From NCBI GenBank assembly GCA_003559755.1, contig PWKM01000150.1:1-43937 (forward strand): 43,937 nucleotides of DNA, written 5' to 3'. The position numbers were made by a program, and so were the translations under genes. This DNA comes from Planctomycetota bacterium (GTDB taxonomy: Bacteria; Planctomycetota; PUPC01). This document shows, piece by piece, positions 6,385-39,775 of the stretch. The notes under the pieces were generated by a model. It ran no database searches. It was not told where the DNA came from and was given only the letters and a program-made list of their open reading frames with translations. How positions within the stretch are numbered: position 1 is the first letter of the stretch; each line of letters opens with the position of its first letter.

Positions 6385-6465
6385 GCGCCTGCACCGGTCG
6401 GCCGCAGGGTATCGCGGCAAGCATCGTCCATCCATCGCGCCCGGGGTACAATCGCCCGTCGTTCG

Positions 6466-8199
6466 TCACCGCCTGCGACGCCGCTTCACAATCACCAGCC
6501 CGAACGCCAGCAGGGTGAGCGAGCCCGGTTCGGGGATGATGAGATGAACCGGCGGCGGGTCCATAATGCCCGCCTCTCCCCACCAGGCCAGTGCGAAGTC
6601 CGCACTGTCGATCTCGCCGAAGATGTTCTCGGAATAGGCGACGCGGAGCCCGTAGAGGCCGGTTGTCGGGAGGTCGAAGACGAGGTGCTCGACGGGAGTG
6701 TAGGTGTCGATCGACTCGGCATAGAGGGTGCTGAATTCGCTGTCCCAGACCTGGAGATCAAGGTTGGCGAATCCGGCCTCAAGCACAGAGACGGTGTCGT
6801 CATCCTCAATATAGTTCCGTTCGCGGAACCAGGTGAGTGTGGCCCGGAACTCGGAACCGGCGGCGAGCGGGGTGCTGATCACCACGTCGGTGGTATCGCC
6901 CAGATCGACCCGGGCGAAATCCCAGCCGATGACTTCGCTGGTCGTGCCCCCGTCCATCCCCTCGATGTCCGTCTGTCCGGTCAGGTATTGCGTGTAGGTA
7001 CGGCCGAGGTCGAGCGCTCCGGCTCCGTAGGTGAAGTGAAGCGCCTGCTCGGGATCCGCCACGTTGTTTCCGTTGGCATTATCGTAATAATCGTCGGGCT
7101 TCCAGGCGGCGTTGAGCAGGTTCGCCTTGATGACGCGGGCGTCGTGTGCGGCATCGGGGAGGTCCATCTGCCGGGCGGCGTCGTGCATCAGCGCCACGCC
7201 GCCGGCGACGATCGGCGCGGAATAGCTCGTACCGCTGAGCGGGGATGCGTAGAGGTTTGTGGCTCCGGGGTTGTCTACGTCATAGTGGGCAGACACCAGG
7301 TTTGTGCCCGGTGCGACAATATCGACCGCCCCGCGTCGGGCGACTCCGGCAGCTATGGTTCCGTTAACCGGATCCCAGTAGGCCTGTGGGCCGCGGCTGC
7401 TGAACTCGGCGATGGCGTCGTAATTGTTGTCCCCATCGTTCTGGAGAGCCCCGACGGTGATATTATTGTAACCGGAGCCGGGGGACAGGACCGTGTTCGT
7501 GCCGGGGCCGCTGTTCCCGGCTGCCACAACGAAGGTGGTGCCGGGGTTGTCATAAGCGAGAGCGTCGGGTATTTGTGCGGTCCAATGATCTCCGGAGGGG
7601 TGCGTCGCCCCCCAACTGGCGTTGATCACGTCGGCCGTCCCGAATCCGGATTCGGTCGAGCTCAATGCGTAGGCGAGCGTGGCCACCGAGAGGTTGAAGG
7701 TGGTGCCGCCTCCCCACCCACTGGTGGCGATTGCGGCAGACCGCAGGTCGGTTTCGGGAGCGATCCCCTCCTGATGAACCCCGCCGCCCTGGGTCTGTCG
7801 TCCGCCGATCATCATGCCGACCTGTGTGGCATGGCGGTGCGGGTCGGCATAGGCATCGTCGGGATGATTGGTAAAACTGGTCACGTGAGTCAGCGTCTCG
7901 TGCTCGCCCCAGATATGGCCGGCCTCGATGTTCGAACTGACCGTGCCGGACCCATCGAAGCCGCTGTTGTGGAACACATCCGCACCGATGATCTCCGCGA
8001 CGTTCGCTCCTGTGAGCGCCGTCGGGATATTCGTATTAAGATGAAGTTGAGCTCCAGCTTCCTCCGTCGTGCTCCAGGTGTACGTCCACACCCCAGCGTC
8101 CGACGACGGAACCGCCGGTCCCGCGTGTGTTGCGACAGACAGACCCGCACCAACGACCAACAGCGAAACCAGGCCAACAACAAACCCTCGCAATTTCAT
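6466..8199 (-). CDS. Secreted subtilisin-like serine protease (peptidase S8) with a C-terminal PEP-CTERM sorting signal
   Basis: Signal peptide MKLRGFVVGLVSLLVVGAGLSVA. The His block is HATQVGMMIGG and the Ser block is SGTSYSAPIVAGGVALM. The C-terminus IIPEPGSLTLLAFGLVIVKRRRRR is PEP motif plus TM plus Arg cluster. AAGGAG lies 8 nt upstream of the ATG. Confidence 0.9.
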   Translation of the reverse strand: MKLRGFVVGLVSLLVVGAGLSVATHAGPAVPSSDAGVWTYTWSTTEEAGAQLHLNTNIPTALTGANVAEIIGADVFHNSGFDGSGTVSSNIEAGHIWGEHETLTHVTSFTNHPDDAYADPHRHATQVGMMIGGRQTQGGGVHQEGIAPETDLRSAAIATSGWGGGTTFNLSVATLAYALSSTESGFGTADVINASWGATHPSGDHWTAQIPDALAYDNPGTTFVVAAGNSGPGTNTVLSPGSGYNNITVGALQNDGDNNYDAIAEFSSRGPQAYWDPVNGTIAAGVARRGAVDIVAPGTNLVSAHYDVDNPGATNLYASPLSGTSYSAPIVAGGVALMHDAARQMDLPDAAHDARVIKANLLNAAWKPDDYYDNANGNNVADPEQALHFTYGAGALDLGRTYTQYLTGQTDIEGMDGGTTSEVIGWDFARVDLGDTTDVVISTPLAAGSEFRATLTWFRERNYIEDDDTVSVLEAGFANLDLQVWDSEFSTLYAESIDTYTPVEHLVFDLPTTGLYGLRVAYSENIFGEIDSADFALAWWGEAGIMDPPPVHLIIPEPGSLTLLAFGLVIVKRRRRR

Positions 8200-24044: not shown

Positions 24045-24075
24045 GGGTCTGCCTGCGGGCAGGCCCTTTTCTATT
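24045..24075 (+). terminator. Rho-independent terminator after the zinc-ribbon gene
   Basis: GGGTCTGCC-TGCG-GGCAGGCCC forms a 9-bp stem with one G-U pair, followed by TTTTCTATT. It sits between convergent genes. Confidence 0.6.
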
Positions 24076-25738
24076 CGGTATCCGGTTCCGGCGGCCGCGT
24101 GAGGAGGCGGGCGTCCGACCATCCGAGTTCGTTGCAGAGATCGACGACGCGCACCACCCATCGGTAGAGTGTTGCCGGCTCGGGCTGGATGGTGACCTGG
24201 ACATCGTCGGCGGTTCGTCGCAGGCCCGCGATGTATGTGAGGCGCTCGCGGAGCCAGATCAGGTCCCCGGTCTCGGAGGGATCACTTTCCGACAGGGTGA
24301 CGGTCACGGGCGGGATTTGGGCGGGGTGGCCGTCGCTGACGCCGATGTGGATATGTATCCGTTCGATGCGTGCCGGCCTCTCGACGTCGCGTCTGGCGAG
24401 CGGACCGCGGTTCCAGTCCAGGCGCAGGGCCATGTGATCGCGTGTTCTCACCTCGAGGGGTTCATGCGTCGCTCCCTCGATCACTTTCGTCTCGGCCGGT
24501 TCTGCTTCCTGGATGGCGTGGAACACTTCGGCCAGTTGCAGTGCGGTCGTATCCTCGTCGATGATGACGGAGAATCCCTTGTCCGAATCGCCCTCTTGCC
24601 AGAGGGTTGCCAGTTCTTGTGCGGTGACCCGTGCGCCGTCGATCTGGATACGGTTTTCCTGGAGCTCGGCGGTCAGACCGACCTCGAGGTCTTCCTTGAG
24701 TCGGACGGTTTCGAGCGATTCGACCTGTATGCCGCTCCGGTGGATGGCATCGAACGCCCGGTATATTGCGTCGGGCGGCGCCCCGTGGTCGATTGTGATG
24801 CGGAGCGAGTCTTCGTCCTCTTTGTCCCGAATATCTCGAAGTGTGTCGAGCAGGAACATCGGTTCGCGCTCGTTGAGCAGCACGCGCCCGCCCCGGGTGA
24901 TGTCCATGTGGATGACCTGGCCCCCGAACTCGTTTTTGGGGGGCGGTTCCGGCAGTTCGGCGGGTTTGATGATGAGGGTGACCTCGGTGCCTACCGGCGG
25001 GACGACGTCGGTGTTGACGACGAACGCCCGGTCGTCGGCCCCGATTTCAAGCGGGAGGTCAAGCACGGACATCGGGTCACGGAACACGGTGACCACGGAT
25101 AGCTCGCGGTTCGCCCAGTAGATTTCCCTTCCGGTCTGGGGCTCCTGGACAAATCGGCTGCCCAGGAATACGTAATGGGTTCGGCACATCAGCCGTTGGT
25201 CGATCTGGTTCCAGACCAGGTCTTCCGAGCGGTACGTCTTGGGGCCGTCCTCGGTCTCGAACCGGACGTAGATGTTCACCGGGTCCCCGGAGGGGGCATG
25301 CTCGGGGTCCCCCTGGAATCGCGGCCCGGCGTCGGCCGGTGCGGGCTTCAGCCCGAGGGCAAGCAGGAACATATGGAGGTCGCTCGGCTGGAGGTCGAGC
25401 GCGATGATGCTCTCGTATTCTTTGCCGCCGCGTGCACAGGCGAGCAGTTCGATGGGGCCTTCATCCAGGCAGATTTCCCCGTCGACCTCGATGCGTCTCT
25501 CCTCGGGGTAAAGCCGCGCCCCGCGCCTGCTGATGACCTTCCGGTCGGCGATTTCGGGCAGGGCTTCGGGGTCCTCGATCTCTTCCCGCTCGACGATGTC
25601 ATCCGCTTCGGGCGCCTCGTCGGCGTTCGCGGAGCCGGCCCAGATGGCCGGGGCCAGGGCGGCAAGAATGAGAGCAACGGCAAGGCGGGGTCCCATCCGC
25701 AAGAATGTCAACTTTCGGGCTGAATTTAACGTTCTCAT
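24071..25738 (-). CDS. Secreted protein: YdjY-like N-terminal domain followed by three ExbD-periplasmic-domain-like repeats
   Basis: Signal peptide (LAVALILAALAPAIWAGSANA). YdjY-like segment (EVDGEICLDEGPIELLACARGGKEYESIIALDLQPSDLHMFLLALGL). Three segments fit the ExbD C-domain pattern (e.g. IHMDITRGGRVLLNE...LRITIDHGAPPDAIYRAFDAIHRSGIQ; VQVTIQPEPATLYRWVVRVVDLCNELGW). It is the last gene of the TPR-exbBDD operon. Confidence 0.7.
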   Translation of the reverse strand: MRTLNSARKLTFLRMGPRLAVALILAALAPAIWAGSANADEAPEADDIVEREEIEDPEALPEIADRKVISRRGARLYPEERRIEVDGEICLDEGPIELLACARGGKEYESIIALDLQPSDLHMFLLALGLKPAPADAGPRFQGDPEHAPSGDPVNIYVRFETEDGPKTYRSEDLVWNQIDQRLMCRTHYVFLGSRFVQEPQTGREIYWANRELSVVTVFRDPMSVLDLPLEIGADDRAFVVNTDVVPPVGTEVTLIIKPAELPEPPPKNEFGGQVIHMDITRGGRVLLNEREPMFLLDTLRDIRDKEDEDSLRITIDHGAPPDAIYRAFDAIHRSGIQVESLETVRLKEDLEVGLTAELQENRIQIDGARVTAQELATLWQEGDSDKGFSVIIDEDTTALQLAEVFHAIQEAEPAETKVIEGATHEPLEVRTRDHMALRLDWNRGPLARRDVERPARIERIHIHIGVSDGHPAQIPPVTVTLSESDPSETGDLIWLRERLTYIAGLRRTADDVQVTIQPEPATLYRWVVRVVDLCNELGWSDARLLTRPPEPDTE

Positions 25739-25806
25739 ATGCGTGCCTGTCCGCTTCGGCCGGCCATTCGTGCTAATCAATGCTGCTGTTCGCCGGTTCG
25801 TGTTTC

Positions 25807-26325
25807 TCAGCCGTCTGGCGGGTCACGTGGGAGCGACCTTCTGGAGGCGGCAAAATTGACCTCCTGGAACCCTTCGCCGCGACATATGGCGACGGCCTTG
25901 ATGACCCATCTGTACTTGACGGCGGGTTCGACCTCGAGTATGACCGGTACATTCTCCCGGACCTGCGGGTCCTGGGCGTGCTTGGCGATTTCCTGGTGGA
26001 GCGTTCTGAGTCCACCGAGCACGGTCCGATCGACATCGATTTGGATGCCGTCGTCCGGCGCGCGGGTCACCTCGTATGTCGGCTCCGCCTCGGGGTCCCC
26101 TCCCCGTGTGCGGATCGTCACCCTGATCTCCGGTTCGATCTCGGCCACGGTCAGTTGGTCGGGCGGGCCGGCCTCCTGGGGCAGGTAGGCCTCGAGCTCG
26201 CCCTCGGGGACGCGGAAGCGGGTGACCACGAAGAAGAAGATCAACAACTGGAACACGATGTCGATCATCGGGGTCATCTGGAGCTTTGAGTCTTCGCCCG
26301 CATTCATGCCTCGCAGGAACTTCAT
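25807..26325 (-). CDS. exbD: ExbD/TolR biopolymer transport protein (paralogue 2)
   Basis: LQMTPMIDIVFQLLIFFFVV TM with the conserved Asp, plus a periplasmic domain (VPVILEVEPAVKYRWVIKAVAICRGEGF). Confidence 0.9.
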   Translation of the reverse strand: MKFLRGMNAGEDSKLQMTPMIDIVFQLLIFFFVVTRFRVPEGELEAYLPQEAGPPDQLTVAEIEPEIRVTIRTRGGDPEAEPTYEVTRAPDDGIQIDVDRTVLGGLRTLHQEIAKHAQDPQVRENVPVILEVEPAVKYRWVIKAVAICRGEGFQEVNFAASRRSLPRDPPDG

Positions 26326-26329
26326 ATCT

Positions 26330-26836
26330 TTATCCCTCTGCCAATCGAACGCTGAACGACATTTTATAGAATCGCATCCGGGCCGCCCGTTCCATCACGT
26401 CCTGAACGGTCCGCCATTCGACGTTTCTGTCCGCCTGGACCAGGATGGGCTGTTCGGATGGTTCGTCCCCCAGCCCCCTGTACTGCCGTTCGACGCGGAA
26501 GTACCTGAGGACCTGGTCCCTGGCCTCGGCCCCCGACTCTCTGAGGTCGTACATCTGCTGTACGCGGCCCTGGATATAGACGGTGTCCATCATCCTGACC
26601 TGGCCGTCTGCAGGGTCAACGCGCTCGCGGGGGATGATGCTGATGATAATCCTGTCGGGGATATTCGTCTCTTCCCGTGCCTGGGCGGCGTAGGGGAGTT
26701 CGAGTCCCTCGATGTGGTCATAGGAGATGATTTCCGAGACCACCAGGAAGAAGATGAGGAGCAGGAACACCACGTCGATCATCGGCGTGAGGTTCATCTC
26801 CAGCTCTTCTGGATGAAATCGCTTGGTGACGTGCAT
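26330..26836 (-). CDS. exbD: ExbD/TolR biopolymer transport protein (paralogue 1)
   Basis: MNLTPMIDVVFLLLIFFLVV TM with the conserved Asp. Its stop lies 4 nt from the start of the next exbD. Confidence 0.9.
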   Translation of the reverse strand: MHVTKRFHPEELEMNLTPMIDVVFLLLIFFLVVSEIISYDHIEGLELPYAAQAREETNIPDRIIISIIPRERVDPADGQVRMMDTVYIQGRVQQMYDLRESGAEARDQVLRYFRVERQYRGLGDEPSEQPILVQADRNVEWRTVQDVMERAARMRFYKMSFSVRLAEG

Positions 26837-26842
26837 GGTGTG

Positions 26843-27610
26843 CTACTCCACAGGTCGGAATCGGGCCATCAGTTCGCCGCTGATGGCGCCCACTTCCAGA
26901 ACGATCTTCTGGACGCGGTTTTTGAAGAACTGGTAGATGCACATAACCGGGATGGCGACGATGAGGCCGAGGAACGTGGTGACCAGTGCGAGCTGGATGT
27001 TTTGTGCGAGGTCGGCCGGTTTCGGGGGGACGTCCGGGTTTGCGATGGCTGCGAACGCACGGATCATGCCGAGCACGGTCCCCAGCAGCCCGAGCATGGG
27101 CGAGATGTTGGCGATGAGTGAGAGGTAGCTGATCTTCTGTTGCAGATCGACTGCGGCCTCTTCTCCCGCCTCGCTCATTGCCTCTTCCATCTGCTTATAA
27201 CCGGCGTTCACCCGGGAGAGGCCGGCTGCGATCACGTTACTGAAGAAGGTCGGCTGTTCCTCGCAGACCATGATGGCCTCCTCATACTCCTCCTGCTCGA
27301 AGCATTCTTCGACATCGGCGAGCAGTTCCGGCGGCATGATTACGCCGCGCCGGATGGTCAGCCCGTGCTCGATGGCCAGGGCGATGGATATGAGGAACAG
27401 GAAGATGATGATGTAGCCGATCAGCCCACCGGCCTGGATGACCTCCAACACGCTCATCGTCTCGGTTGGGTCTTCCTCCGGCTCGGCCGCGGGCGCCGGC
27501 TCCTCGGCCGCCTCAGCGACCATCACGACCGGGGCGCAGAGAAGCAGAACGGCTATTATCAGGATGATGGCGAATGGCTTCCAGCTTCCGGCCCTCCAAC
27601 AATCAGGCAT
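26843..27610 (-). CDS. exbB: MotA/TolQ/ExbB proton-channel protein with N-terminal signal peptide and acidic Pro-rich linker
   Basis: AAGGAGAG RBS 8 nt before ATG 27610. Core motifs: GGLIGYIIIFLFLISIALAIEHG, ISPMLGLLGTVLGMIRAF, ALVTTFLGLIVAIPVMCIYQFFKNR. Confidence 0.9.
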   Translation of the reverse strand: MPDCWRAGSWKPFAIILIIAVLLLCAPVVMVAEAAEEPAPAAEPEEDPTETMSVLEVIQAGGLIGYIIIFLFLISIALAIEHGLTIRRGVIMPPELLADVEECFEQEEYEEAIMVCEEQPTFFSNVIAAGLSRVNAGYKQMEEAMSEAGEEAAVDLQQKISYLSLIANISPMLGLLGTVLGMIRAFAAIANPDVPPKPADLAQNIQLALVTTFLGLIVAIPVMCIYQFFKNRVQKIVLEVGAISGELMARFRPVE

Positions 27611-27699
27611 ACCAGATCTCTCCTTAAAACGAGCCACAATTTCGGGGCCGATGGCTTTTTGGCATCGTGCCCCACGAATTCATTATCCGGTCGATCCGC

Positions 27700-28842
27700 T
27701 CAGCCGCCCAGTTCTCTGAGGCCGGTCCTCGCGTCATCGACCACATCGCTGTCCGGAAAATTCTCGATCAATTCTCGATAGAGGCGACGTGCCCGGGTCC
27801 TGGCGGCGGGGCCGCCGATCTCGACCGAGGCCGTTGCCGCGCCGAACATCGCTTTTGGCCTTTCTCTGCGCGCCTCTGGGTATAGTATATAAACTCTCAT
27901 GTAGGAAAGCACGGCCTGGTTCAGATTAACCTTCTTCTCCGTCTCGTCCTCAGCCCGGCGGCCGGCCTCGAAATGGAGATCGCCCAGTGCCATGTACAGG
28001 CGGAGGCGGTTGGCCCTCTCGGTAATTCTGTCCTCGATGCTGTCGATCCACCGGGTGGCATCGTCCGCCCGCCCGAGGTCGACGAGTACCTGGCCCTTCC
28101 CCACCAGCGCCCGCTGGTAGATATTGCGCACCTGGTCGAGATCGTGTTCCAGGTCGCCCGGGTTTCGGAGTGTCTGTCCGATGTCGTTGACCAGACGCTC
28201 ATAGATGCCCATCGCTTCCTCTTGATTTTCGACTATCAGATGGGCCTCTGCCTGGCCTTCCAGGGCCACGAGCTCCCAGAGCGGGCCATGTTCTGCCATC
28301 TTCCGGTAGGTCTCGATCGCCTGTTCGTGCTGACCGAGTTCGCGGTGGGCCCGGGCCTTGGCTTGAATGGCTTCGAGAACGTAGAAGGAATTGGGGTGTT
28401 CGTCCAATACGACATCGAACTTTTCCAGGGACTCCTCGGCTTTGCCCGTCTCGAGCAGGATTCGCCCGAGGATGACCGCCCTGTATGGCTGATACCAGAA
28501 GCTTCGCGGTTCCGGTTCCACCCCACGCTCGATGAGCGCGAGCGCTCGTTCCCATTCTCCGTCTTCCACCTGCCGGATGGCCTGGGCGAACTGGCGGGCA
28601 TCGCCCCAACCGATCTCTACCACTTCGCGGGATGGGACGGTCTGGATCTCGGCTTGCCTTTCCTGGAAAGCGCGGTAGGCGACGTGCTCGGTTGTGGCTT
28701 CGGTGACGGTAATCTGGCGGACTCTGCTTCCATCGCGTCGGGTGATCGTGTCCGGCATCCTTGGGTCTTCCGCTGCGGCTGCATCGGGGATCGTCAGCCC
28801 GACAACAAGGCCCAGCACGGCTATGCTGAGTAGATATCGCAT
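27700..28842 (-). CDS. Secreted TPR-repeat protein (380 aa)
   Basis: AGGAGG RBS (28851-28856) before ATG 28842. Signal peptide MRYLLSIAVLGLVVGLTIPDAAAA. TPR-like repeats (e.g. FYVLEAIQAKARAHRELGQHEQAIETYRKM). The upstream extension of the ORF to 29079 overlaps the preceding gene and is rejected. Confidence 0.8.
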   Translation of the reverse strand: MRYLLSIAVLGLVVGLTIPDAAAAEDPRMPDTITRRDGSRVRQITVTEATTEHVAYRAFQERQAEIQTVPSREVVEIGWGDARQFAQAIRQVEDGEWERALALIERGVEPEPRSFWYQPYRAVILGRILLETGKAEESLEKFDVVLDEHPNSFYVLEAIQAKARAHRELGQHEQAIETYRKMAEHGPLWELVALEGQAEAHLIVENQEEAMGIYERLVNDIGQTLRNPGDLEHDLDQVRNIYQRALVGKGQVLVDLGRADDATRWIDSIEDRITERANRLRLYMALGDLHFEAGRRAEDETEKKVNLNQAVLSYMRVYILYPEARRERPKAMFGAATASVEIGGPAARTRARRLYRELIENFPDSDVVDDARTGLRELGG

Positions 28843-28858
28843 GGTTGTGGCCTCCTGT

Positions 28859-31800
28859 CTATTGCAGTTTGGTCTTGAGTTCTCTGGCGCGTTCCCGGAC
28901 CTGTTCTTCGTCGGCCCGTTCGATGACCGAATCGATGAACCTGATGAACGTCTCCTGGCCTCCGGCCAGTTCGGGGTCCAGCTCGCGGGCTCTCTCGATG
29001 GCATCCAGAGCACTGCCGTAGTTGTGGCTCTCGATTTCGTCGCGGGCATCGGCCGCCCTGATCCTGACCAGCAAGGCACGCGCCCTGTCCTGTTCCTCGC
29101 CCGGTTCGCTGCGGTTGTAGACCTCCCGGACCACGGATGCCAGCCGGCTGCGAATCTCGGGGCCGCCGAGGGATGGTTCGCCGGCCGCTCGCCGCCGAAT
29201 GACCCGGAGGTTATCGCTGTATCGACCGTCCAGGTTCCAGAGTTCCGCGATGGTTGCGACCACGTCCCACCAGTCTTCGGAATAGGGTGTCAGCCGCCTC
29301 AGAAGTTCGGTGCAATGTTCGAGTGCCTCGTTGAGATAAGCATCGGACCCGGGGGCGAGTTGTTGAGCCGCCTTCGCGAGGTGGAGGCGGGTCGTCGCCC
29401 AGTAGGGCGGAGGGGTTGCGTCTTCATCGTGCTGCAGGCGGCGGTTGTATATTTCGTCGAGCCGGTCGTACTGTTCCTTGAGTTCGATGTATGCTTCCTC
29501 ATACTGGCCGGTGTGGTAGTACGCCGTGCCCAGCAGGATGCGGGCCCTTTCGAGCTGCACCTGTTGGGTCCTTGTGAGGAGCGGGTCGCCCTCGAACCGT
29601 TCGAGGAAGAGTTCCAGGAACGGGAGCCCCTCGTTCAGGCGGTCCTGGCGATGGAATTCGCCGACTGCCCAGTACAGCGTCTCGTAGGGCTGTTCGGGAT
29701 TCCTGTTGATCATCGCGGTCACGATGTCGAGGGCCCGGTTGGCCGACTGGGAAGCGATGTCGCGTTTTTCTTGGATTTGCTCCCGGAGCCCTCTCCGTTC
29801 AGCGGGTTCCTCGGCCTGTTCCGCCTGTGCCTCGAGCTCTTGTGCTTCGCTTCGGGATGTCCGGGCGTTTGCAGCGTGAGCACGGAACCGTGCTTCGTCC
29901 GCCGCTCTCAGCAGCCGCTCTCCCTGGGGCTGTCTCTCCTCGTCCATCTCCAGGACGACCCGTTCCAACTGGGCATAGGCGTCTTCCGCATCGTCCAGGA
30001 GTTCCAGTCGTACCAGCGCCTGTACGCGATAGTAGCTGACGGCCGGATGGTAGACAGCGGCATCGGGGAACCGTCCGACGAAGTTCTCGGTCAGTTCGAG
30101 ATAGGCCTCGTAATCCTCGCGGCCCGGCCAGATATAGATTCGGCTGAGCCCATAGACGGCGGCGGGCATGAGCCGAGCGCGCCGTCGGTTGACGGCGGAA
30201 TAGATCGATTCCTGCTCGGCCCGTTCCATGAACCGCAGAAAATCGGCTTTGGCCTGATCGAGCAAAGAGCTGCTCCGCTGGGGGGCTTCGTTTCGCAACT
30301 GCTGGGCCCAGAGCATCCGTGCCTCGGCGGTCTTCACGATCGCCGCCTCGTAGTAGACCGAGTCCTCGGGGATTTCCGCCAAGCTGGCGACGGCCTCCTC
30401 GAATTCGCTGCTGGCGATGTGTCGGAGGGCGTCCTCGTACATCCGGGGCTCGCCTCCAAACGTCTCGAGGAACCAGTTCCTGACCCATTGGTACAGCAGT
30501 TCGTCGGCTTCGTCCCCGGTCGCGTCCCGCTGCTGCCGGAGCATCAGGCGGGCCAGCCGGCCGTAGGTCTCCTCCTGCTCTCCGCCTTTGCCCGAGGAGA
30601 CGATGTGGCGGTAGACGGTGAATGCCTCGTGGAACATGTTTTCCTGGCGGTAGGCCATTGCCAGGAGTTGGAAGGCCGTTGTGCGTTGTTCGGAGGTAAT
30701 CTGGTCGCCGAACTCCAGAAGCTGCGGGATGAGGCGGATCAGGGCTTCGTTGTCGCGCGCCCGATGTGCTTCGGAGATCTGGCGCATGACGGCTCGCGGC
30801 CCCATGCCGTCGAGTCCATACCGCTGGCGGAGCGAGATGGCCTGCCCTTCCCACTGGGGATGCTGCTCGGAGAGGCGCTCCAGCAGGGTGTTGGCCCGTT
30901 CCTGTGCTTCTTCCGCCCGTTCTTCCCGGCCGCCTTCACGCAGGCGACTGGCGAGCATCAGGATGAGTTCTCCCCGGGCAATCAGGGCCTCCGGCATCTC
31001 GATGCCATCGAGGTACCGGATGGCCTCTTCGATTTTTTCGCTGTCCTGGTTGGCCATGGCCAGTGCCCGGACCGCCTTCGTCCGATGCTCCCACAACCTG
31101 AGCTCGTCGGTGAGCTGCGGAACAGATTCCATTGCGTCCTCGATGAGGAGCAGGTTCATTTCTGCGCTTCGTTGGGCCTGTCTGTAATCTTCGGCGGCGA
31201 GGTATGCCCGGGACAGGGTCAACTGTCCGATGATGGTCTCGCCACGCAGCCCGTATTCAGGGCAGAGGATTTCGAGGTGCTCAATGGTCTTTTGCAGCAG
31301 TTCATTTCGCCGTTCGGTCTCTCTGGGGGGGAGTGCCTGATAGTAGGCGAACCTTGTGCGGTTGAGTTCATAGCCGGCGTTGGCGTGCTTGCCCTGCAGC
31401 TCGCCGAGTATTCTCAGCCACTCTTGCAGTTGGGCTCGGTCGTCCGGTCGTTGTTTCTCGTGTTCTTCCAGCGCCTGGGCCGCCACATCAGTAAGCCGTT
31501 CCAGCCCCTCAATCGCGCGTTCGAAGGCCTGGGACATCCTCTGGAGGAGTTGATCCCGCTGGTCACCGCTGGCCACTGCGGCCCGATTGGCATATTGCTC
31601 GGCCTGGGCGCGCAGGCGGAGAAACTCGGCGACAGTCCCCACTCTTGCCGAAGGGTCCAACTCTTCCAGTTCCGCACTGTACCGATCGACGTATTCCTGG
31701 TGACGGGCGCGTTTGGCATCCGCCTCGGCGCTGGACAGGTGCCCGTGGACGGCGCCGGCAAACTCCCGATGGGCGGCGAGAAGGGCGTTCAGGGCCTTGG

Positions 31801-31987
31801 CCCGCTGGCCCTCGTCTTCAATCTCGTCCAGGCGATTCTCGAGCACCTCGATGCCCAGATCGGGGAAACCGCGCTCGACGAGGCCGGCCCCAAAATCGAT
31901 ATCTTCGTCAAGTGGCGCTGCCGCTGCCGACGACGCCATAAGCCCGGCCAGGAGTAGAGCAGAACTCAATGTGATAACCAATCGCAT
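28859..31987 (-). CDS. Secreted giant TPR-repeat protein (1042 aa)
   Basis: AGGAG RBS. Signal peptide MRLVITLSSALLLAGLMASSAAAAP. Helical-repeat composition rich in Ala/Leu/Glu/Arg/Tyr throughout. GC3-rich codons in this frame, whereas the 1087-aa antisense ORF is Gly/Pro/Arg-rich shadow. Confidence 0.85.
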   Translation of the reverse strand: MRLVITLSSALLLAGLMASSAAAAPLDEDIDFGAGLVERGFPDLGIEVLENRLDEIEDEGQRAKALNALLAAHREFAGAVHGHLSSAEADAKRARHQEYVDRYSAELEELDPSARVGTVAEFLRLRAQAEQYANRAAVASGDQRDQLLQRMSQAFERAIEGLERLTDVAAQALEEHEKQRPDDRAQLQEWLRILGELQGKHANAGYELNRTRFAYYQALPPRETERRNELLQKTIEHLEILCPEYGLRGETIIGQLTLSRAYLAAEDYRQAQRSAEMNLLLIEDAMESVPQLTDELRLWEHRTKAVRALAMANQDSEKIEEAIRYLDGIEMPEALIARGELILMLASRLREGGREERAEEAQERANTLLERLSEQHPQWEGQAISLRQRYGLDGMGPRAVMRQISEAHRARDNEALIRLIPQLLEFGDQITSEQRTTAFQLLAMAYRQENMFHEAFTVYRHIVSSGKGGEQEETYGRLARLMLRQQRDATGDEADELLYQWVRNWFLETFGGEPRMYEDALRHIASSEFEEAVASLAEIPEDSVYYEAAIVKTAEARMLWAQQLRNEAPQRSSSLLDQAKADFLRFMERAEQESIYSAVNRRRARLMPAAVYGLSRIYIWPGREDYEAYLELTENFVGRFPDAAVYHPAVSYYRVQALVRLELLDDAEDAYAQLERVVLEMDEERQPQGERLLRAADEARFRAHAANARTSRSEAQELEAQAEQAEEPAERRGLREQIQEKRDIASQSANRALDIVTAMINRNPEQPYETLYWAVGEFHRQDRLNEGLPFLELFLERFEGDPLLTRTQQVQLERARILLGTAYYHTGQYEEAYIELKEQYDRLDEIYNRRLQHDEDATPPPYWATTRLHLAKAAQQLAPGSDAYLNEALEHCTELLRRLTPYSEDWWDVVATIAELWNLDGRYSDNLRVIRRRAAGEPSLGGPEIRSRLASVVREVYNRSEPGEEQDRARALLVRIRAADARDEIESHNYGSALDAIERARELDPELAGGQETFIRFIDSVIERADEEQVRERARELKTKLQ

Positions 31988-32312
31988 CAGCGAAGCTCCT
32001 GGAATGATGGGAACAATTTCCTTTGTTATTCTAATAAACGAAAGGAAGGGCCAAAAAGTTCACGACCACCGGCAAAATTGCCCAATATCAGCCCGGCGGG
32101 CTTGCAGCCCCGCCCGCGAGCTGACGTTGCGACAACACCAGGTCAGATAGTGAAGCAGACTGACACGACCGGATACTCGTCCGGCCCCGGCCGAACAAAC
32201 GTTCTTGAACTTTGCCCCGGCCCAACTCGGGAGACAGGCATTGGCAAAGGCACTGCACCGCCACACAGCAAACGAACGGGTGACAACATCAATTGGTAGT
32301 AGTATCGGCCGG

Positions 32313-32906
32313 CTACTCTTTCTGTTCAATAATATGTGCGGTGACCAGGACGATCAGGTTATTTCGTGAGATGATCCTGCGACGGCTCCTGAAGAGGCCG
32401 CCAATGAGCGGGAGGTCGCCGAGAATGGGAAGTTTGGCATGCCCCTCAGCGTCGACCGCCTCGGCAAGCCCACCGATGAGCAGCGTCCCGCCGTCGGGCA
32501 CCGATACGGTGGTCATCACCTGCCGGGTGCTGATGGTGGGCAGTTGGACGAACCGCTCGAGAGCTACCGCCAGGCGTTCGTCATCATCATCGTCAACATC
32601 AAGCAAATCGAGGTCCTCACGGGTCGCGAAACCAAAGCGATCTATTTGCTCCGCTACATTGACCTGGGGCCTGAGCTCGAGTGTGATGTATCGGCGGTCG
32701 GCGCTGACGAACGGTTGGACCTCGAGGGTGATGCCGCTGTTGACCTGCCCGATCTCGGGCTGCTCGTCGGCGTCATAACTTCTGACGTAGCTCGTTCTCG
32801 TGGCGATGGTGACGAACGCCCGCTGGGTATTGAAGCAGGTGACGCGCGGTGCGGTCAGGATGTTGCCTCTCTTTTCCTTTCGGACGGCGTTGATGATTGC
32901 CCGAAC
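32313..32906 (-). CDS. Secretin (GspD/PilQ family) C-terminal secretin domain; in-frame continuation of the upstream ORF after a TAG codon
   Basis: My own translation from directly after TAG (32909-32907) reads VRAIINAVRKEKRGNILTAPRVTCFNTQRAFVTIAT...VQLPTISTRQVMTTVSVPDGGTLLIGGL...KLPILGDLPLIGGLFRSRRRIISRNNLIVLVTAHII. These are canonical secretin motifs. No convincing independent start or RBS. Confidence 0.8.
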   Translation of the reverse strand, partial: VRAIINAVRKEKRGNILTAPRVTCFNTQRAFVTIATRTSYVRSYDADEQPEIGQVNSGITLEVQPFVSADRRYITLELRPQVNVAEQIDRFGFATREDLDLLDVDDDDDERLAVALERFVQLPTISTRQVMTTVSVPDGGTLLIGGLAEAVDAEGHAKLPILGDLPLIGGLFRSRRRIISRNNLIVLVTAHIIEQKE

Positions 32907-34682
32907 CTACCAGCTATTGAGGAACCCGGTCATCAGCCGCATCCCGGCCTCTTCCCCGACTTGCTGGTGGCCCATTCTGGCGAAGGGGCCGGACTCGAGA
33001 GGCATGTCAATGCCGAGGCCGAATTGGGTCCGAATGCCCGGCCTGTAAAACCCGTATCGGCCGTCCGGGCCCACCCCTGTCCACCGGATACTCAACTCGT
33101 CGAGAAAGTCCTCTTCTACCTCGATAAACCGCGCCATGATGGCGACCTGGACGGCCCGCGCCCGTCGGAAGCTGGCGAGCAGTTCCCGAATTTCTTCCTG
33201 GACCTCGGGCGAGTGGGTGACAACCAGCCGGCCGGTGCGGTATGCAATGCGGTTCTGGCCGACCCCGCCCTCGATGTCCCAAGTGCCGGGTGCGATGGCT
33301 TCGCGGATGAAGGACATCCAGCGGTCCCCCTCGATCTCGTGCTCCATCCTCTTGACGTCATCCTGCCCCGAACTGGAACTGAACCAACTGCGGTCGTCCT
33401 TCCGCCGCTGGAACTCGGGCGTCCCGATGCCGCCGTCGGACATCTCGGTGTTGAAGTCCCTCGGCTGGATGGTCAGGTCGGAGATGTCGTGCCACATGGT
33501 GACCGGCCGCTCGGCCAAGCCTTCCTCGTTGGAGATGAACACGGCGCCATCCCGGATACGCCAGTCGAGGTTCGCGTTTTGCAACCGAACAAGGAAATTG
33601 AGCACGCTCTCCATCGGTGCGTTCCGCATCCGGAGGCTGACCGGCTCGACCGTGGGAAGGATGGTCGGGTCGACGATAATGTTGAGATCGCCGGCCGCTC
33701 GCATGTAGTCGATGGCTTCCTCGAACGGACGCCCGTCGAACTGGACGCTGATCCGGGTGGCCTTGAGTCGGGCCTGGATCTCCTTCTGGGTTCGTTCGTC
33801 GTCGTCTGACACACGCGGCTGCCGAGTGATCAGGCCGGACGTCTCGGGAGCCGGTCGGCGCAGCCGACTGCTGACCGGTTCCGGTCGGATGGTGTCGTAA
33901 CCCATCTCGCTCAGGTCGGTGGACATCATCTCGCCGACCATCCGGTCGGCCCGTGAGATCATCCCTTGAAGCCCCGGCTCCACGTCGATTCGTTCCTCGG
34001 GAACGGGGGGGGACCTGTCGGGCGCGGGGGCAGTGGGGACGGCCGTCTCGAGGGTGGGCTCGTCGCCCGACCGGCTCAGCAGGCCTTCCATCTGGAGCGC
34101 CCTTGCCCGCCTCAGGCCGGCCTCGGCCTGGTTGACAAGCTCCGGGAACCGCTCGTTGATGGGCTGGAGGACGTTAATGGCCTGGTCGAACCTGGCGGTC
34201 GATTCGTTGTAATCGCCGTCCGCGATGCCGGCCTGTCCGGCGTTGATGAGTTCCTCGGCCCTTGTTCTCAGGGCTTCCGGGCTGTTCAAGCCGGCGGTGT
34301 CTGCTCCCGCCTGACTGGTCTCCTGAGCCGGGGGCTGGGGCAGTGAGGACATTTCTGCCTCGCCGGGTGTCTCCGGCTGCAGAACGGGTTCGGATGAGGG
34401 AGCCGCAACCGCCTCATCGCCCGCTCTTTCTGTCGCCTGTTCGAGGCCCTGGCGGGCGGCATCCAGGTCGGGGTCGCAGTTGAGTGCGGCTCGGAAGTGT
34501 TCGACCGCCTGGGCATATTCCCCTGCGGCGAGCAGTTCCTGCCCCCTTTCCATGAACCCGATGGCGACGCTCCTTAACGGGCTGACATCGGCCGCCGCGG
34601 TGCCTGGCACGGACATGGTCGCACAAACAAGTAAGCCAGCGAGCAGGATTTTCGTAATCAAGTCGAGCCCTCTTTCTTCCAT
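32907..34682 (-). CDS. Secretin N-terminal part (signal peptide, TPR-like head, N-domains, start of the secretin domain), ending at an in-frame TAG
   Basis: GGGAGACC RBS before ATG 34682. Signal peptide ITKILLAGLLVCATMSVPGTAAA. TPR-like AAGEYAQAVEHFRAALNCDPDLDAARQGL. N0/STN-like ISVQFDGRPFEEAIDYMRAAGDLNIIVD...VSLRMRNAPMESVLNFLV. Ring-building VQVAIMARFIEVEEDFLDEL. Confidence 0.8.
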   Translation of the reverse strand: MEERGLDLITKILLAGLLVCATMSVPGTAAADVSPLRSVAIGFMERGQELLAAGEYAQAVEHFRAALNCDPDLDAARQGLEQATERAGDEAVAAPSSEPVLQPETPGEAEMSSLPQPPAQETSQAGADTAGLNSPEALRTRAEELINAGQAGIADGDYNESTARFDQAINVLQPINERFPELVNQAEAGLRRARALQMEGLLSRSGDEPTLETAVPTAPAPDRSPPVPEERIDVEPGLQGMISRADRMVGEMMSTDLSEMGYDTIRPEPVSSRLRRPAPETSGLITRQPRVSDDDERTQKEIQARLKATRISVQFDGRPFEEAIDYMRAAGDLNIIVDPTILPTVEPVSLRMRNAPMESVLNFLVRLQNANLDWRIRDGAVFISNEEGLAERPVTMWHDISDLTIQPRDFNTEMSDGGIGTPEFQRRKDDRSWFSSSSGQDDVKRMEHEIEGDRWMSFIREAIAPGTWDIEGGVGQNRIAYRTGRLVVTHSPEVQEEIRELLASFRRARAVQVAIMARFIEVEEDFLDELSIRWTGVGPDGRYGFYRPGIRTQFGLGIDMPLESGPFARMGHQQVGEEAGMRLMTGFLNSW

Positions 34683-34910
34683 AGTGTCGGTCTCCCTACT
34701 ACACTTGCGCCCGCCGGGCGGCGAAACAACATATAAGGGGCCTGCCCGGCCACGATAAAAAACTGATTCCAGGCCGCCTCGAACAGGATGGCGGCCACCA
34801 GATTGGCAGGGGATGGAGGCGCATCGCAACGCGTGACAGGAGGCCGGTACGCGCCCGGCAACCCTTGCGCCTGTTCCCGTTTCTCAAAAATACATCCATG
34901 ATCGGTTCGT

Positions 34911-36299
34911 TTACTCCGGTCGCATCTGGTCCGCCTGGCCGCGAATCTCTTCCATTACATGGGCCGGCCAGAGCACCTTTATACGTCCTCTTTGATCAAT
35001 AAGCAAGGCCTTTGGGTCTCTTCTTTCATATTCGCGTCCCGCTCGAACCCGTACCCACGTCTGCCGGGGCAGAACATCCAGCAGGCGATAGCCGGTGGAG
35101 AAGTCGATCGGCTCATCGAACCGGAGCACCGAGCGACCGGGCCGGCGCTCGACGTGTCGGCTGAGCTGCCAGCCCACCGGCTGGCCCGGTCTGACTGCGA
35201 ATCTCGCCCGTACCTCGACCATCCTCGGCTCGCCGATTTCGTCCTCGCCCTCCTGATCGGGATCGAGATGGGGGACGGTTGTGGTGACGTAGAACGAGGC
35301 GCGGTCGGCGCTGGCCGTGATGAACTCGATCTGGAACGGCTCTTCCACCTGCACGGGCAGAGGCCCGGCCTGTTCACTGGTCACCGTCGGCTCGTCGCCC
35401 GGCCCGAGTTCAACAGCGAACAACACATATTCATAGTCGACGCTCGGGACCAGATCGCGGTCCTGATAGATGAAGGTGCGGTCCTTGAACACGACCGGAT
35501 CGGGCAACGGGGTCTGATCGGCGGCCCGTGTTTCCAGAACGATGCCGTCGGGCGGAACGACCTCGGGGTCGAGGTCGACGTCTTTCACCACCGCCCGAAG
35601 GAGGAGCACGGGGGACTCGTCGCCGGCCCTGCGATACAGCCGATATTCGTGGACCTCGGCGTTTACCGCCTCGGGCTGCCCCCACGAGAGCCGAGCCCGG
35701 GCATCCTGGACCGCGACGGAGAAGCGGGGCGGGCGGGCGATCCTCCGCAGTTCCGGCGGGGCCACAGTGACCGGAACAACCACGATGATCTCGTCGGCCC
35801 TTCGCAACGTGACCTGCGTCCTGCCCGCGGAACGGGGTGTCAGCCGAAGGACCTGCTCGGCCGTGATGATCTGGGCTTCGACGATGTCCGGGTGCTGCAC
35901 ATGGACTGCGGCGTCCCACTCCTGGTCGACCAACTCGACATCTACGGTCTCGTCCGGCTCGTCGAGTGACAGCCGGACTGTTGCGACCTGTCGAGCGTCC
36001 GGGGGTGCGACGGGCCTCTCCGGGGCGGGCAGTTCGACCTGCGACACCTTGATATCGGGCCGGAGTTCGCCGATGGAGGCGGTGAGGTAATCCTTGTCAA
36101 GCGGCGGCATTTCGTAGCTCGACGCTTCCTGTTTCCGGAGCAGGTTCTCGATGCGCGCTTCGACATCCGCCGGCGACACTTCCGGGACGGGTCGAGCCAG
36201 CAGCGCGCGGCCGACAAATACTATGGCAAGCAGTGCCAACAAGGCGACAATCGCCTTGTCGACCACTCGGAAAAGGACGCCTCCTGCTGAACTAGCCAT
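34911..36299 (-). CDS. Bitopic hypothetical protein in the PilP position of the pilus-like cluster (462 aa, FN3-like segment)
   Basis: N-terminal TM (AIVALLALLAIVFVGRALLA). FN3-like ARLSWGQPEAVNAEVHEYRLYRRAGD. Good GC3 coding signal. Located between the PilO-position gene and the secretin. Confidence 0.65.
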   Translation of the reverse strand: MASSAGGVLFRVVDKAIVALLALLAIVFVGRALLARPVPEVSPADVEARIENLLRKQEASSYEMPPLDKDYLTASIGELRPDIKVSQVELPAPERPVAPPDARQVATVRLSLDEPDETVDVELVDQEWDAAVHVQHPDIVEAQIITAEQVLRLTPRSAGRTQVTLRRADEIIVVVPVTVAPPELRRIARPPRFSVAVQDARARLSWGQPEAVNAEVHEYRLYRRAGDESPVLLLRAVVKDVDLDPEVVPPDGIVLETRAADQTPLPDPVVFKDRTFIYQDRDLVPSVDYEYVLFAVELGPGDEPTVTSEQAGPLPVQVEEPFQIEFITASADRASFYVTTTVPHLDPDQEGEDEIGEPRMVEVRARFAVRPGQPVGWQLSRHVERRPGRSVLRFDEPIDFSTGYRLLDVLPRQTWVRVRAGREYERRDPKALLIDQRGRIKVLWPAHVMEEIRGQADQMRPE

Positions 36300-36329
36300 C
36301 TCGTTCTCTTATTCCTGTTTGTCGCTCGA

Positions 36330-38012
36330 CTACCTGCGCAGCCGAACCGTTATAACCAGGTCTCCTGTATCCATCCGTCGCGAGATGGGCACTCGGATCG
36401 TGATGTCACGATCGACCAGAGCGTCCTCCTCGGTGATAATCACTGTGCCCGTCGCCTCCTGGAACCGCTCGGTCTGCAATCCGTCCCGGGCCCGCAAGAG
36501 GGCATATCCGAACTTGAATGCTACGTCGCTCATCGATACCGGGCGGGCCCGGTGTCGAGCGAGGTAATACGTCTGCCAATCGCCCACGGGCTCCGGCAGG
36601 AGGGCCCTCATCTGGCGGACACGTCCTTCGACCGGGACCACTCGGTCCAGGTAGAGGGTGAGGGTGTCATCCACTTCCTCGGCGTCGAGCCGGTCAATGT
36701 CAGCGGTTACGTCCTCGGGCCTCTCAGAATGTCCAAGATACCACCGATCTTCCCATCGCGCAACTATCAGCGGAAATTCGCCGTCGCCGTTCTGGATCAA
36801 GTAGGCCTTTCCGTCCACCAGCGGTACGAGGTAGTCTCTGGTCAGGTCGAAGCGGGCAGACTCTTGGAGCACCTGGCTCACCTCTTCGCGGAACTCCTCG
36901 CGAGCCCGGTCGTGTTCGCCCGTCCACTCCTCTGCGGTCTCGGCGTCTCCGTCGGCCTCATCCCCATCCCCTTCAAGCGATCCGTCGATGTCCTGCAACC
37001 GGCTGCTGAGGGCGGCTTCCATCTCCCATTTCAGGTTGCTGAGGATTCGCTGACGCAGTGGCCGATGGTGTTCGACCGAGAACTGCGTGGCGGTCCGAAG
37101 GTCTCGAATCTGGTTCTCGAGCCAGTCAGAGATCATGGCCCGGGTCTCGAACAGGTTCGTCGGGAAGCTGACCGTGTAGATCGCCGGCAGGAACTCGATG
37201 ATGTCGCAGCCCATGACAACCCGGTATTGGGGAGCTTCTTCCTCGATATCGGACCCGCCGTTGATCCGCTCGATCTCGTAGTTGGTCACCTGCAGGAACT
37301 TGGGGCTGTTGTGTATCTTTTCTATGAGGCGGTTCAGGTCGCGATACGACTGCACGGTGAAGGCCAGGTCGAGCCCGATTGTCTGGACCCAGTCGTGGCT
37401 GACCAGCCCGACGGAGGTGGCCACCAACTGCATGCGTGAGAGTTCCAGGATCAGCGGCGCCCGGTCCGGCTCGGGTCGAGCGACATCAATCATCGCCTCG
37501 ACGGCATACTTGAGCAGCCAGTACTCTCTCTGAAGCATCTGGGCCGCCCGGATGCGCTCCTGGTCCGTCTCGTAGGTATCGCGCATCACTCTGAACTGCA
37601 ACACGGGGCGGTCCGGGGTAGGAAGCATTTGGGCGAGGTGGGCAGCGAGATGCGACATCCTTCGTTCATATTCGACTTCCCACACCCGCCGCTGATCGCG
37701 ATGGAACGGGAGCCGGAACTCGTCAAAAGCTCGATCGAACATCCCCGACCGCGCCGCGAACAGCATCAGCAGTTCGCCGTAATGCCGTTCCCACCGGGTC
37801 CTCTCCTCCGCCGCGCTGCGAACCATTTCCGGGTTGGGGATCTCGGCCCGGGCCTCCCATTTGTCAAGTGTCCCAATCGCCCTCTGGCTCTCACGCTCCA
37901 GGGAGACAATCCTCTCGTCCATCCCTCTGTCAACCATCAGATAGCCGACCGAGAGCGCCACCACGACCAGACCCAGGACGATCCAGAAAAGGTTGTTCTT
38001 GATGAATGCCAT
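36330..38012 (-). CDS. Bitopic hypothetical protein in the PilO position (560 aa; possibly PilO/Amuc_1100-like N-terminal half)
   Basis: N-terminal TM (LFWIVLGLVVVALSVGYLMV) and a coiled-coil. Ferredoxin-like segment LDLAFTVQSYRDLNRLIEKIHNSPKFLQVTNYEIER. Its ATG overlaps the pilMN stop as ATGA (38010-38014). Confidence 0.65.
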   Translation of the reverse strand: MAFIKNNLFWIVLGLVVVALSVGYLMVDRGMDERIVSLERESQRAIGTLDKWEARAEIPNPEMVRSAAEERTRWERHYGELLMLFAARSGMFDRAFDEFRLPFHRDQRRVWEVEYERRMSHLAAHLAQMLPTPDRPVLQFRVMRDTYETDQERIRAAQMLQREYWLLKYAVEAMIDVARPEPDRAPLILELSRMQLVATSVGLVSHDWVQTIGLDLAFTVQSYRDLNRLIEKIHNSPKFLQVTNYEIERINGGSDIEEEAPQYRVVMGCDIIEFLPAIYTVSFPTNLFETRAMISDWLENQIRDLRTATQFSVEHHRPLRQRILSNLKWEMEAALSSRLQDIDGSLEGDGDEADGDAETAEEWTGEHDRAREEFREEVSQVLQESARFDLTRDYLVPLVDGKAYLIQNGDGEFPLIVARWEDRWYLGHSERPEDVTADIDRLDAEEVDDTLTLYLDRVVPVEGRVRQMRALLPEPVGDWQTYYLARHRARPVSMSDVAFKFGYALLRARDGLQTERFQEATGTVIITEEDALVDRDITIRVPISRRMDTGDLVITVRLRR

Positions 38013-39667
38013 CAGATGCCGCCTCCCATCTCCGGACCTTCGACTCGATATGTGCAGGTAACCATAAACTCGATGCCCTCGTCACCCATGCCCGGCGAAT
38101 CATAATCGACCGCTGCCAGGCCCTCTTCGCCCTCGAATGTGCCCGAGACGGCCCGGCGAACGCGAGCGGAATCAACCAGGCCGGTGCCCGGGGCGACGCC
38201 CCGAACACTAAAGCGGATGCTGTACCCATCGCGATCCAGCATGGGTTCGGCATGTATCCTCGTCACCAGAATGTCGATGCCGACCCTCTCCGAATCGCCA
38301 AGACGTTCGATCACCCGGTTGAGCACGTTCTGGGCTTGGGGGACCGCACGGAACCCGTGGCTCAGATCGAGCGGCTGATCGAGCCGACGGCGAGCGTCCT
38401 CGGCCTCCCGCGTCGCCCCGTCGAACTCGTCCGAGATGGACTCGAATTGCTCGTCAATCTGAACGACCTGTTCCTGACTGGCGATCTGCTCCTGCAACTG
38501 CTGCCTCTCCACTTGGCGCGAATAGAGGTTGGCCCCGAAGATCAGGGCGAGGCAGGCGATCCCGGCCGCGGCATAGGGCTTCTTGCTGCTGAGGGTCCGC
38601 CGGCGGATCAGCTCCCGGGGCATCAGGTTGACGCTGACCCGGCCCCGACCGACTCCGTCTAGAGCCAGTCCGATGGCCGGCCCCAGCGACGGCAGCATGT
38701 TCCGCAACTGGGTGCCGTCAACGTCGGGGGCGAGTGTGACCCGCTCGAGTGTGTCGGCGGGAACTTCGCTGCAGTCGAGCTGCTGGATGAAATACTCGCG
38801 TACGCCGGGCAGGCGGAACGTGTTGCCGAGGAGCAGGGCGTCCTCGATCCGCACGTTATGAATCTGCGATTTGAAGAACCCGATCGTGCGCTGTATCTGG
38901 CCCACCAGCTCGTTGAGCGTCGGCTGGGCGAGCTTGAACAGGCGGGCGGCCTGGGCCTTGTCCCGGCATTCGCGCTTGAGGCGCTCGGCCTCCTGGGGGT
39001 CGATCTTCAGCCGTTCGGACAGTGCCCGCGTGATCCCGTTGCCCGACACGGTGATGTTTCGCACGCGGAAGTTCTGGGGGTCACAGATGAGCATGTCGGT
39101 GCTGCCTGCGCCGATGTCGATGATGATGGTGCCACGGGCGACGTCCCGGTCGAACGTCAGATAGTTGTACAGGGCGAGCGGGACGGGGAGTATGGCGGCG
39201 GGCTCGAGCTTGCACAGGCGGAGGTTGGCGAGCAGCGAATAGATGAACTGTGACCGGAGCGAAAAGATCGCCACCTCGGTCTCCTCGCCCGGGGCCGTCT
39301 CCTCACGGACCCGCTGATAATCCCAGACGACTTCATCGATGGGGAACGGGATCTGCTGGCGCGCCTCGTACCGGACCACCTCGGGGATGCGCTTCTCGTC
39401 CACGGGCGGGAGCGGGATAAATCGGCTGAAGGCCGGCTCGGGGATGGAGACGACGAGCGGCGTCTTGCCGAAGTTGTTGCGGGCAGCCAGCGTGGTCACC
39501 GCCTCGCGTAGCTGATAATCCTTATCACCGGTATCGTCAGCCGGGGGCTTCCGCTCGACCACGTCGAACGCGACAATTTCGGCGCCGATGCGTGTACGGC
39601 GCATCTTCACCGCCTTGACCGTGCTCTCCCCGATGTCCAAGCCCCAAGCCACGCGTGCTGTCAACAT
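38012..39667 (-). CDS. PilM (actin-like ATPase fold) :: PilN fusion protein
   Basis: WGLDIGESTVKAVKM and IIIDIGAGSTDMLI are actin-fold phosphate motifs. This is followed by SVNLMPRELIRRRTLSSKKPYAAAGIACLALIFGANLY, the PilN signature plus TM, then a coiled-coil and a periplasmic domain. ATG 39667 is the likely start. Confidence 0.8.
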   Translation of the reverse strand: MLTARVAWGLDIGESTVKAVKMRRTRIGAEIVAFDVVERKPPADDTGDKDYQLREAVTTLAARNNFGKTPLVVSIPEPAFSRFIPLPPVDEKRIPEVVRYEARQQIPFPIDEVVWDYQRVREETAPGEETEVAIFSLRSQFIYSLLANLRLCKLEPAAILPVPLALYNYLTFDRDVARGTIIIDIGAGSTDMLICDPQNFRVRNITVSGNGITRALSERLKIDPQEAERLKRECRDKAQAARLFKLAQPTLNELVGQIQRTIGFFKSQIHNVRIEDALLLGNTFRLPGVREYFIQQLDCSEVPADTLERVTLAPDVDGTQLRNMLPSLGPAIGLALDGVGRGRVSVNLMPRELIRRRTLSSKKPYAAAGIACLALIFGANLYSRQVERQQLQEQIASQEQVVQIDEQFESISDEFDGATREAEDARRRLDQPLDLSHGFRAVPQAQNVLNRVIERLGDSERVGIDILVTRIHAEPMLDRDGYSIRFSVRGVAPGTGLVDSARVRRAVSGTFEGEEGLAAVDYDSPGMGDEGIEFMVTCTYRVEGPEMGGGI

Positions 39668-39775
39668 GCCAACAGACCCACCTAAAAACAGGGAGGAGTT
39701 AGTATTACCGGCAGACAAAGAACCGGAACCCAGAACGAACAAACCAGCTTGCAATTCTTTGTAATAAGCTCCCCC

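Follow-up and report, generated by a model that had tools for sequence, protein, structure and literature searches.

A single in-frame TAG splits a secretin gene in the DNA considered here, a contig of 43,937 nucleotides (PWKM01000150.1; 'the window') from a planctomycetotal metagenome-assembled genome (MAG). Is this gene a pseudogene, a pair of separately expressed genes, a gene whose stop codon is decoded, or an intact gene in which one base has been misread? The MAG amounts to 2.9 Mb in 352 contigs, with 65% GC and an estimated completeness of 89.75%. In what follows, we describe the interrupted gene and its neighbors, compare it with its relatives near and distant, and weigh each of these possibilities against that evidence.

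The interrupted gene

The secretin gene occupies positions 34682–32313 of the minus strand and comprises 789 codons, with the in-frame TAG at 32909–32907. Around the stop, the coding strand reads ...TTC CTC AAT AGC TGG TAG GTT CGG GCA ATC ATC.... Translated in one frame, 34829–32313 yields 640 residues up to this TAG and 197 more between it and the natural stop, a TAG at 32315–32313. The original prediction that the frame stays open past the first TAG is correct; its count of 198 further codons includes the final stop, there being 197 sense codons. The open frame 5' of the TAG spans 640 codons, beginning with a TTG at 34829, and the true start is likely the ATG at 34682, which leaves 591 codons before the stop. 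This ATG is the start in the public 591-aa gene call on the contig, and also in an intact 789-aa homologue from the European Nucleotide Archive (ENA). The N-terminus that follows from it, MEERGLDLITKILLAGLLVCATMSVPGTAAA, resembles a signal peptide. The features of the locus are these:

32910–34682, minus strand: 5' part of the secretin gene, 591 codons; signal-peptide-like N-terminus, one TPR, Pro/Glu-rich linker and periplasmic N-domains; ends ...MTGFLNSW
32907–32909, minus strand: in-frame TAG, codon 592; CAG (Gln) in a 99.45%-identical strain, and Q, E or D in orthologues
32313–32906, minus strand: 3' part of the gene, 197 sense codons and the natural TAG; entire secretin core, without further lesion; match to Pfam PF00263; 61–69% identity to family orthologues
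32313–32606, minus strand: sole canonical-start ORF 3' of the stop (TTG, 97 aa); begins in mid-domain, MLDVDDDDDERL...; gene-caller fragment
24071–39754, minus strand: 10-gene cluster around the secretin gene, its order shared by eight genera of the family

The downstream 197 residues had been taken for the secretin domain, and they match Pfam Secretin (PF00263) over profile positions 2–169, with a score of 113.3 bits (E 1.2e-32) against a gathering cut-off of 27.5 bits. When the stop is read through, the joined sequence scores 107.9 bits. Upstream lies a single TPR (TPR_2), at residues 92–121 of the 640-aa frame. Comparison with solved structures places the stop at the entry to the core: alignments to the GspD secretin cores 5wq8, 5wq9, 9k8v and 5w68 start at fragment residue 297, the stop being residue 298, and the alignment to Vibrio cholerae PilQ (6w6m) covers the N-domain region and passes continuously across the stop. 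Judging from what is known of the family, truncation would leave a product with signal peptide, TPR, linker and N-domains but without any of the pore-forming core.

The site in related genomes

We searched 41 related genomes for the downstream half of the gene. Orthologues at 61–69% identity occur in seven other genera of the family, and a split match occurs in an eighth. The orthologue frames are open, 688–860 aa in length, and contain no internal stop. At the position of the TAG, the eight syntenic orthologues have Gln (four), Glu (three) or Asp (one); among 120 aligned homologues, the commonest entries in this column are Gln (44), Glu (29) and Ser (15). Neither the orthologues of the eight genera nor the 120 homologues are split at the site. 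Matches to the N-terminal and C-terminal halves abut in one frame, exactly one codon apart, at four of the eight loci, these being the four at which the N-terminal match reaches its last residue and abutment can be judged. Orthology of the compared secretins is secure from gene order, because the ten genes of the cluster keep their arrangement in the eight genera as far as contigs reach. In the same-genus genome, no contig covers window positions 29411–33003 and the site is hence unobserved there; the cluster is otherwise present, at 85–91% DNA identity.

The stop was originally placed inside a conserved motif of one continuous gene. It does lie in a motif conserved across the family, FL-x-x-W-[Q/E]-V-x-A-I-I-x-A-V-R-K-x-x-x-G-N-I-L-T-A-P-R-V-T-C-F-N-T-Q-R-A; a small correction is that it falls eight residues ahead of the first matched position of PF00263. 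The principal claim, that one TAG interrupts one continuous secretin gene, is upheld by the translation, by the intact and near-identical 789-aa homologue, and by these uninterrupted orthologues with their Gln, Glu or Asp.

Gene cluster and relation to known secretins

The cluster encodes, in order, a PilM-like protein (580 aa), proteins of 560 aa and 462 aa, the secretin, a protein of 1042 aa, a TPR protein, an ExbB/TolQ-like protein, two ExbD proteins and a YdjY-domain protein. Conservation is highest in the PilM-like and ExbB-like proteins, at 57–82% identity across the eight genera. The PilM-like protein (PilM_2 domain, E 8e-28) is encoded three genes upstream of the secretin. The two proteins encoded between them, like the 1042-aa protein, match no family in Pfam or NCBIfam, and the cluster showed no genes for a pilin, an ATPase or a platform protein. 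This arrangement may correspond to pilMNOPQ, in which pilQ likewise comes after pilM with two genes for bitopic proteins in between.

The best NCBIfam match of the secretin is to the Amuc_1098 family of type IV pilus outer membrane proteins (NF042912; 134.8 bits, cut-off 750), and that of the PilM-like protein is to the Amuc_1101 family (207.6 bits, cut-off 650). Scores of the secretin against TIGR02515 (PilQ; 116.4 bits, cut-off 284.35) and TIGR02517 (GspD; 115.5 bits, cut-off 351.35) are also below threshold, as is that against the MshL model. Amuc_1098, the PilQ of Akkermansia muciniphila, is a TPR-headed secretin of 907 aa, with TPRs at 71–239 and the secretin domain at 650–876; it is abundant in the outer membrane and, with its PilM-like neighbor Amuc_1101, belongs to a type IV pilus-like cluster of the PVC superphylum (PMC4960237). 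The window gene has the same layout, a TPR region at the N-terminus and a secretin domain at the C-terminus, but with scores so far below the family cut-offs the window proteins are only distant relatives of the Amuc_1098/Amuc_1101 system. The window cluster differs, too, in adding the 1042-aa protein and the ExbB–ExbD–ExbD–YdjY module, and in the stop that interrupts its secretin. With PilQ and GspD (V. cholerae PilQ 6w6m; GspD 6i1x and 5wq8) the window gene aligns over the last N-domain and the secretin core; its head, in contrast, is a TPR rather than AMIN or N0. From these profile matches, the window gene is a distant, PVC-type, PilQ-like TPR-secretin that falls outside any curated equivalog.

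Elsewhere in the class, other families (relatives G012, G014 and G018–G024) carry two secretin paralogues of ∼800–930 aa in tandem, ∼2.5 kb apart. The window's family has, instead, a single secretin gene followed by that for the 1042-aa protein.

The genome contains five other secretin-domain genes, one of which (contig C110) adjoins a PilM-like paralogue, and any loss therefore concerns this cluster only. The original prediction went on to state that the stop, if real, inactivates the outer-membrane conduit of the cluster. We infer the same, and consider it reasonable, softened by the presence of these other secretins.

A near-identical strain

The 90%-identity protein cluster that contains the 591-aa product includes a 789-aa member from an ENA metagenome assembly, and 789 is exactly 591 + 1 + 197. 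(A 41-aa member of the same cluster proved unrelated to the secretin gene and was set aside.) The intact protein runs across the site as ...MTGFLNSWQVRAIINAV..., with ...NSWQVRAIIN... at the site itself. Its contig (k141_1416717 of ERZ27301263; 25.8 kb) is 99.449% identical to window positions 22315–43196, over 20.9 kb. The site codon is CAG (Gln) in the ENA strain and TAG in the window: C to T on the coding strand, or G to A at plus-strand position 32909. This is precisely the substitution that had been put forward from the window alone. In this strain, as in all eight syntenic orthologues, signal peptide, N-domains and secretin core form one continuous polypeptide; in the window copy that continuity is broken at codon 592.

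Between the two strains the secretin gene differs at 11 bases: nine changes are synonymous, one is missense (T/S) and one is the nonsense change. Comparison of 14 genes gives 63 synonymous and 23 non-synonymous codon differences, together with a single stop and no frameshift. The secretin TAG is the only internal stop, and the only disruptive difference, among these genes, and the comparison bears out the earlier statement that neither half of the gene has any other lesion. Indels between the strains are intergenic save for one of 3 bp, in frame, in the ExbB-like gene (26843–27637, minus strand), where the ENA strain has an extra GCA codon at window position 27491; it is the only coding indel over the 20.9 kb.

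With the same-genus genome as outgroup, 27 derived changes fall to the window lineage and 38 to the ENA strain, C to T on the coding strand being the commonest class in both. Since the window lineage has the fewer derived changes, its contig shows no excess that would point to an error-rich consensus, and the nonsense change is of the commonest natural kind.

No second assembly with the TAG allele was found in the 90%-identity cluster, the JGI metagenome contigs, the GTDB genomes or the protein search. A 33-mer spanning the site, its variable base left as N, matched no JGI metagenome contig or GTDB genome contig, and a search for partial gene calls with a 240-aa segment centered on the site returned only proteins of 53–61% identity; these searches thus added no copy of the CAG allele either.

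Recoding and readthrough

Could the TAG be decoded—by a suppressor tRNA, as pyrrolysine, or through context-dependent readthrough—so that the cell still makes a full-length secretin? Before and after the stop alike the frame is open and conserved, and in a genome that is ∼90% complete a suppressor tRNA could be among the parts left unassembled. Against this, ARAGORN found 42 tRNAs and one tmRNA in the genome, and no CUA anticodon among them. TAG terminates 348 of 1743 coding-like long ORFs genome-wide, about 20%, and in the window it ends the secretin gene itself and at least five others, among them all four terminators (8544, 24071, 28859 and 36330) cited in the original case against genome-wide reassignment. 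That case is strengthened: TAG is a regular stop here. The sister strain, moreover, has CAG at the site, and the orthologues have ordinary Gln or Glu.

We also scanned the genome for in-frame stops that are flanked on either side by coding-like sequence and have no restart close by. The GC3-based scan yielded mostly antisense or intergenic noise, and the secretin gene alone combines a splitting TAG with protein-like sequence both before and after it; a second, confirmed case (contig C135) and a candidate (contig C298) are both split by TAA. With no CUA anticodon among the tRNAs found, TAG in normal use as a terminator and no recurrent in-frame TAG in conserved genes, we rejected reassignment, suppression and pyrrolysine, and consider decoding of the stop in any form very improbable.

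Separate expression of the two halves

A functional split—a protein of TPR and N-domains, and a secretin core, made separately and then assembled—is the other way in which the gene might still work. A purine-rich stretch, AGGAAAAGAGAGG, precedes a CTG 17 codons past the stop, but the same stretch codes for a conserved RKEKRG motif. The first in-frame ATG, GTG or TTG comes 100 codons past the stop, in mid-domain, and the downstream fragment, which begins VRAIINAVRKEKRGNILTAPRV..., has no signal peptide. Lacking one, it could not reach the outer membrane even if begun at a rare codon. The absence of such a split from the eight orthologue genera and the 120 homologues argues against it as well. 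Separate initiation of the C-terminal half, which the original prediction had named as an observation that would count against it, is unlikely on these grounds, and we rejected it; the 97-aa ORF at 32313–32606 is a gene-caller fragment and not plausible as a functional unit. That the halves function as two proteins strikes us as extremely improbable.

Other interrupted genes

The confirmed second case, on contig C135 (about 6057–7580, plus strand), is a cardiolipin-synthase-like gene (PLDc_N and two PLD domains) with an in-frame TAA at codon 165. The TAA lies at 0-based offset 6548; the same-genus genome has GAA (Glu) there, a G to T change, and the gene is intact in 9 of 9 relatives searched. 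The candidate, on the minus strand of contig C298, is an 854-codon frame with a PBP_like_2 N-terminus, a helical middle and an LRR C-terminus. It contains one in-frame TAA, with the next start 76 codons on, and it has no orthologue in the nine family relatives searched; it may represent either one broken gene or two separate ones. The MAG, then, has at least two conserved genes cut by single stops, of different types, consistent with an ordinary load of pseudogenes.

The same-genus MAG (G001) has two versions of the PilM-like gene, at C143:18221–18859 and C316:284–2020. Of these, one shares 91% identity with the window protein and, according to the search, contains '2 TAA'; the other, a fragment at the end of a contig, is 99% identical. 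The two versions suggest that two strains have been binned together in that MAG.

Nature of the TAG allele

If TAG means stop and the gene is one gene, either the organism carries the nonsense codon or the assembly is in error. In its closest relative, the sense codon is one step away (CAG), and there is no other lesion in the gene; there is no trace of decay in the 197 codons downstream, which fits a very recent event as well as it fits an artefact. Were the TAG to stem from sequencing, assembly or binning, it could be either a miscalled consensus base or a minority allele from a mixed population, and the organism's gene would be intact. The wholly undamaged downstream half, at 61–69% identity to its orthologues, is in keeping with this, as is the CAG in the only other assembly of this species-level population. 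The MAG, too, is fragmented (352 contigs, 89.75% completeness, 4% contamination), and the same-genus MAG, which seems to combine two strains, is broken near this region. The contig itself, on the other hand, is clean: its 14 compared genes show no frameshift and a normal ratio of synonymous to non-synonymous changes, and derived changes are fewer in its lineage than in the ENA strain. The two strains differ by a real 0.55%, and short-read assemblies contain single-base consensus errors at a far lower rate than that. We regard an artefact as rather unlikely, and think it probable that the TAG is a recent nonsense pseudogene or population allele, real and not a consensus error.

On that preferred reading, a single and very recent nonsense substitution, CAG (Gln) to TAG, would have struck a PVC-type, TPR-headed, PilQ-like secretin gene in the strain or population behind this MAG. 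Translation would end at codon 592, just as the secretin core begins; the truncated product would be without the whole outer-membrane β-barrel, and would form no pore. The gene would be a fresh pseudogene, and in this strain the PilM-like/secretin/ExbBD cluster would be left without an outer-membrane channel of its own. The stop, the intact allele of the near-identical strain, the intact syntenic orthologues, the normal use of TAG and the lack of a canonical restart are all observed; the reality of the allele and the failure of the truncated product we infer.

A further step would be that the TAG is a loss-of-function allele maintained at appreciable frequency in the natural population, because cells without this surface-exposed secretin or pilus-like machine gain an advantage, such as escape from phages or predators that exploit it. 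Among strains 99.45% identical, alleles with an intact CAG and null alleles with TAG would then co-circulate. We consider this distinctly unlikely.

Implications for annotation and for the family

Whether nonsense pseudogene or consensus error, the finding is ordinary, of a kind already known. Nonsense pseudogenes in bacteria and MAGs in general arise in the same way—one transition introduces a premature stop into an otherwise undamaged gene, whose intact allele is present in a conspecific strain—and the window gene does not differ from them in kind. Its importance beyond annotation is small. The locus should be annotated as one pseudogene, or as one gene with a suspect base, and not as a 591-aa TPR protein and a 97-aa fragment. 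In metabolic and secretion inventories of the MAG, this secretin should not be counted as functional without a check of the reads. An intact form exists, however, and because eight genera of the family share the gene order of the 10-gene PilM-like/secretin/ExbBD cluster, studies of the cluster should use the intact alleles.
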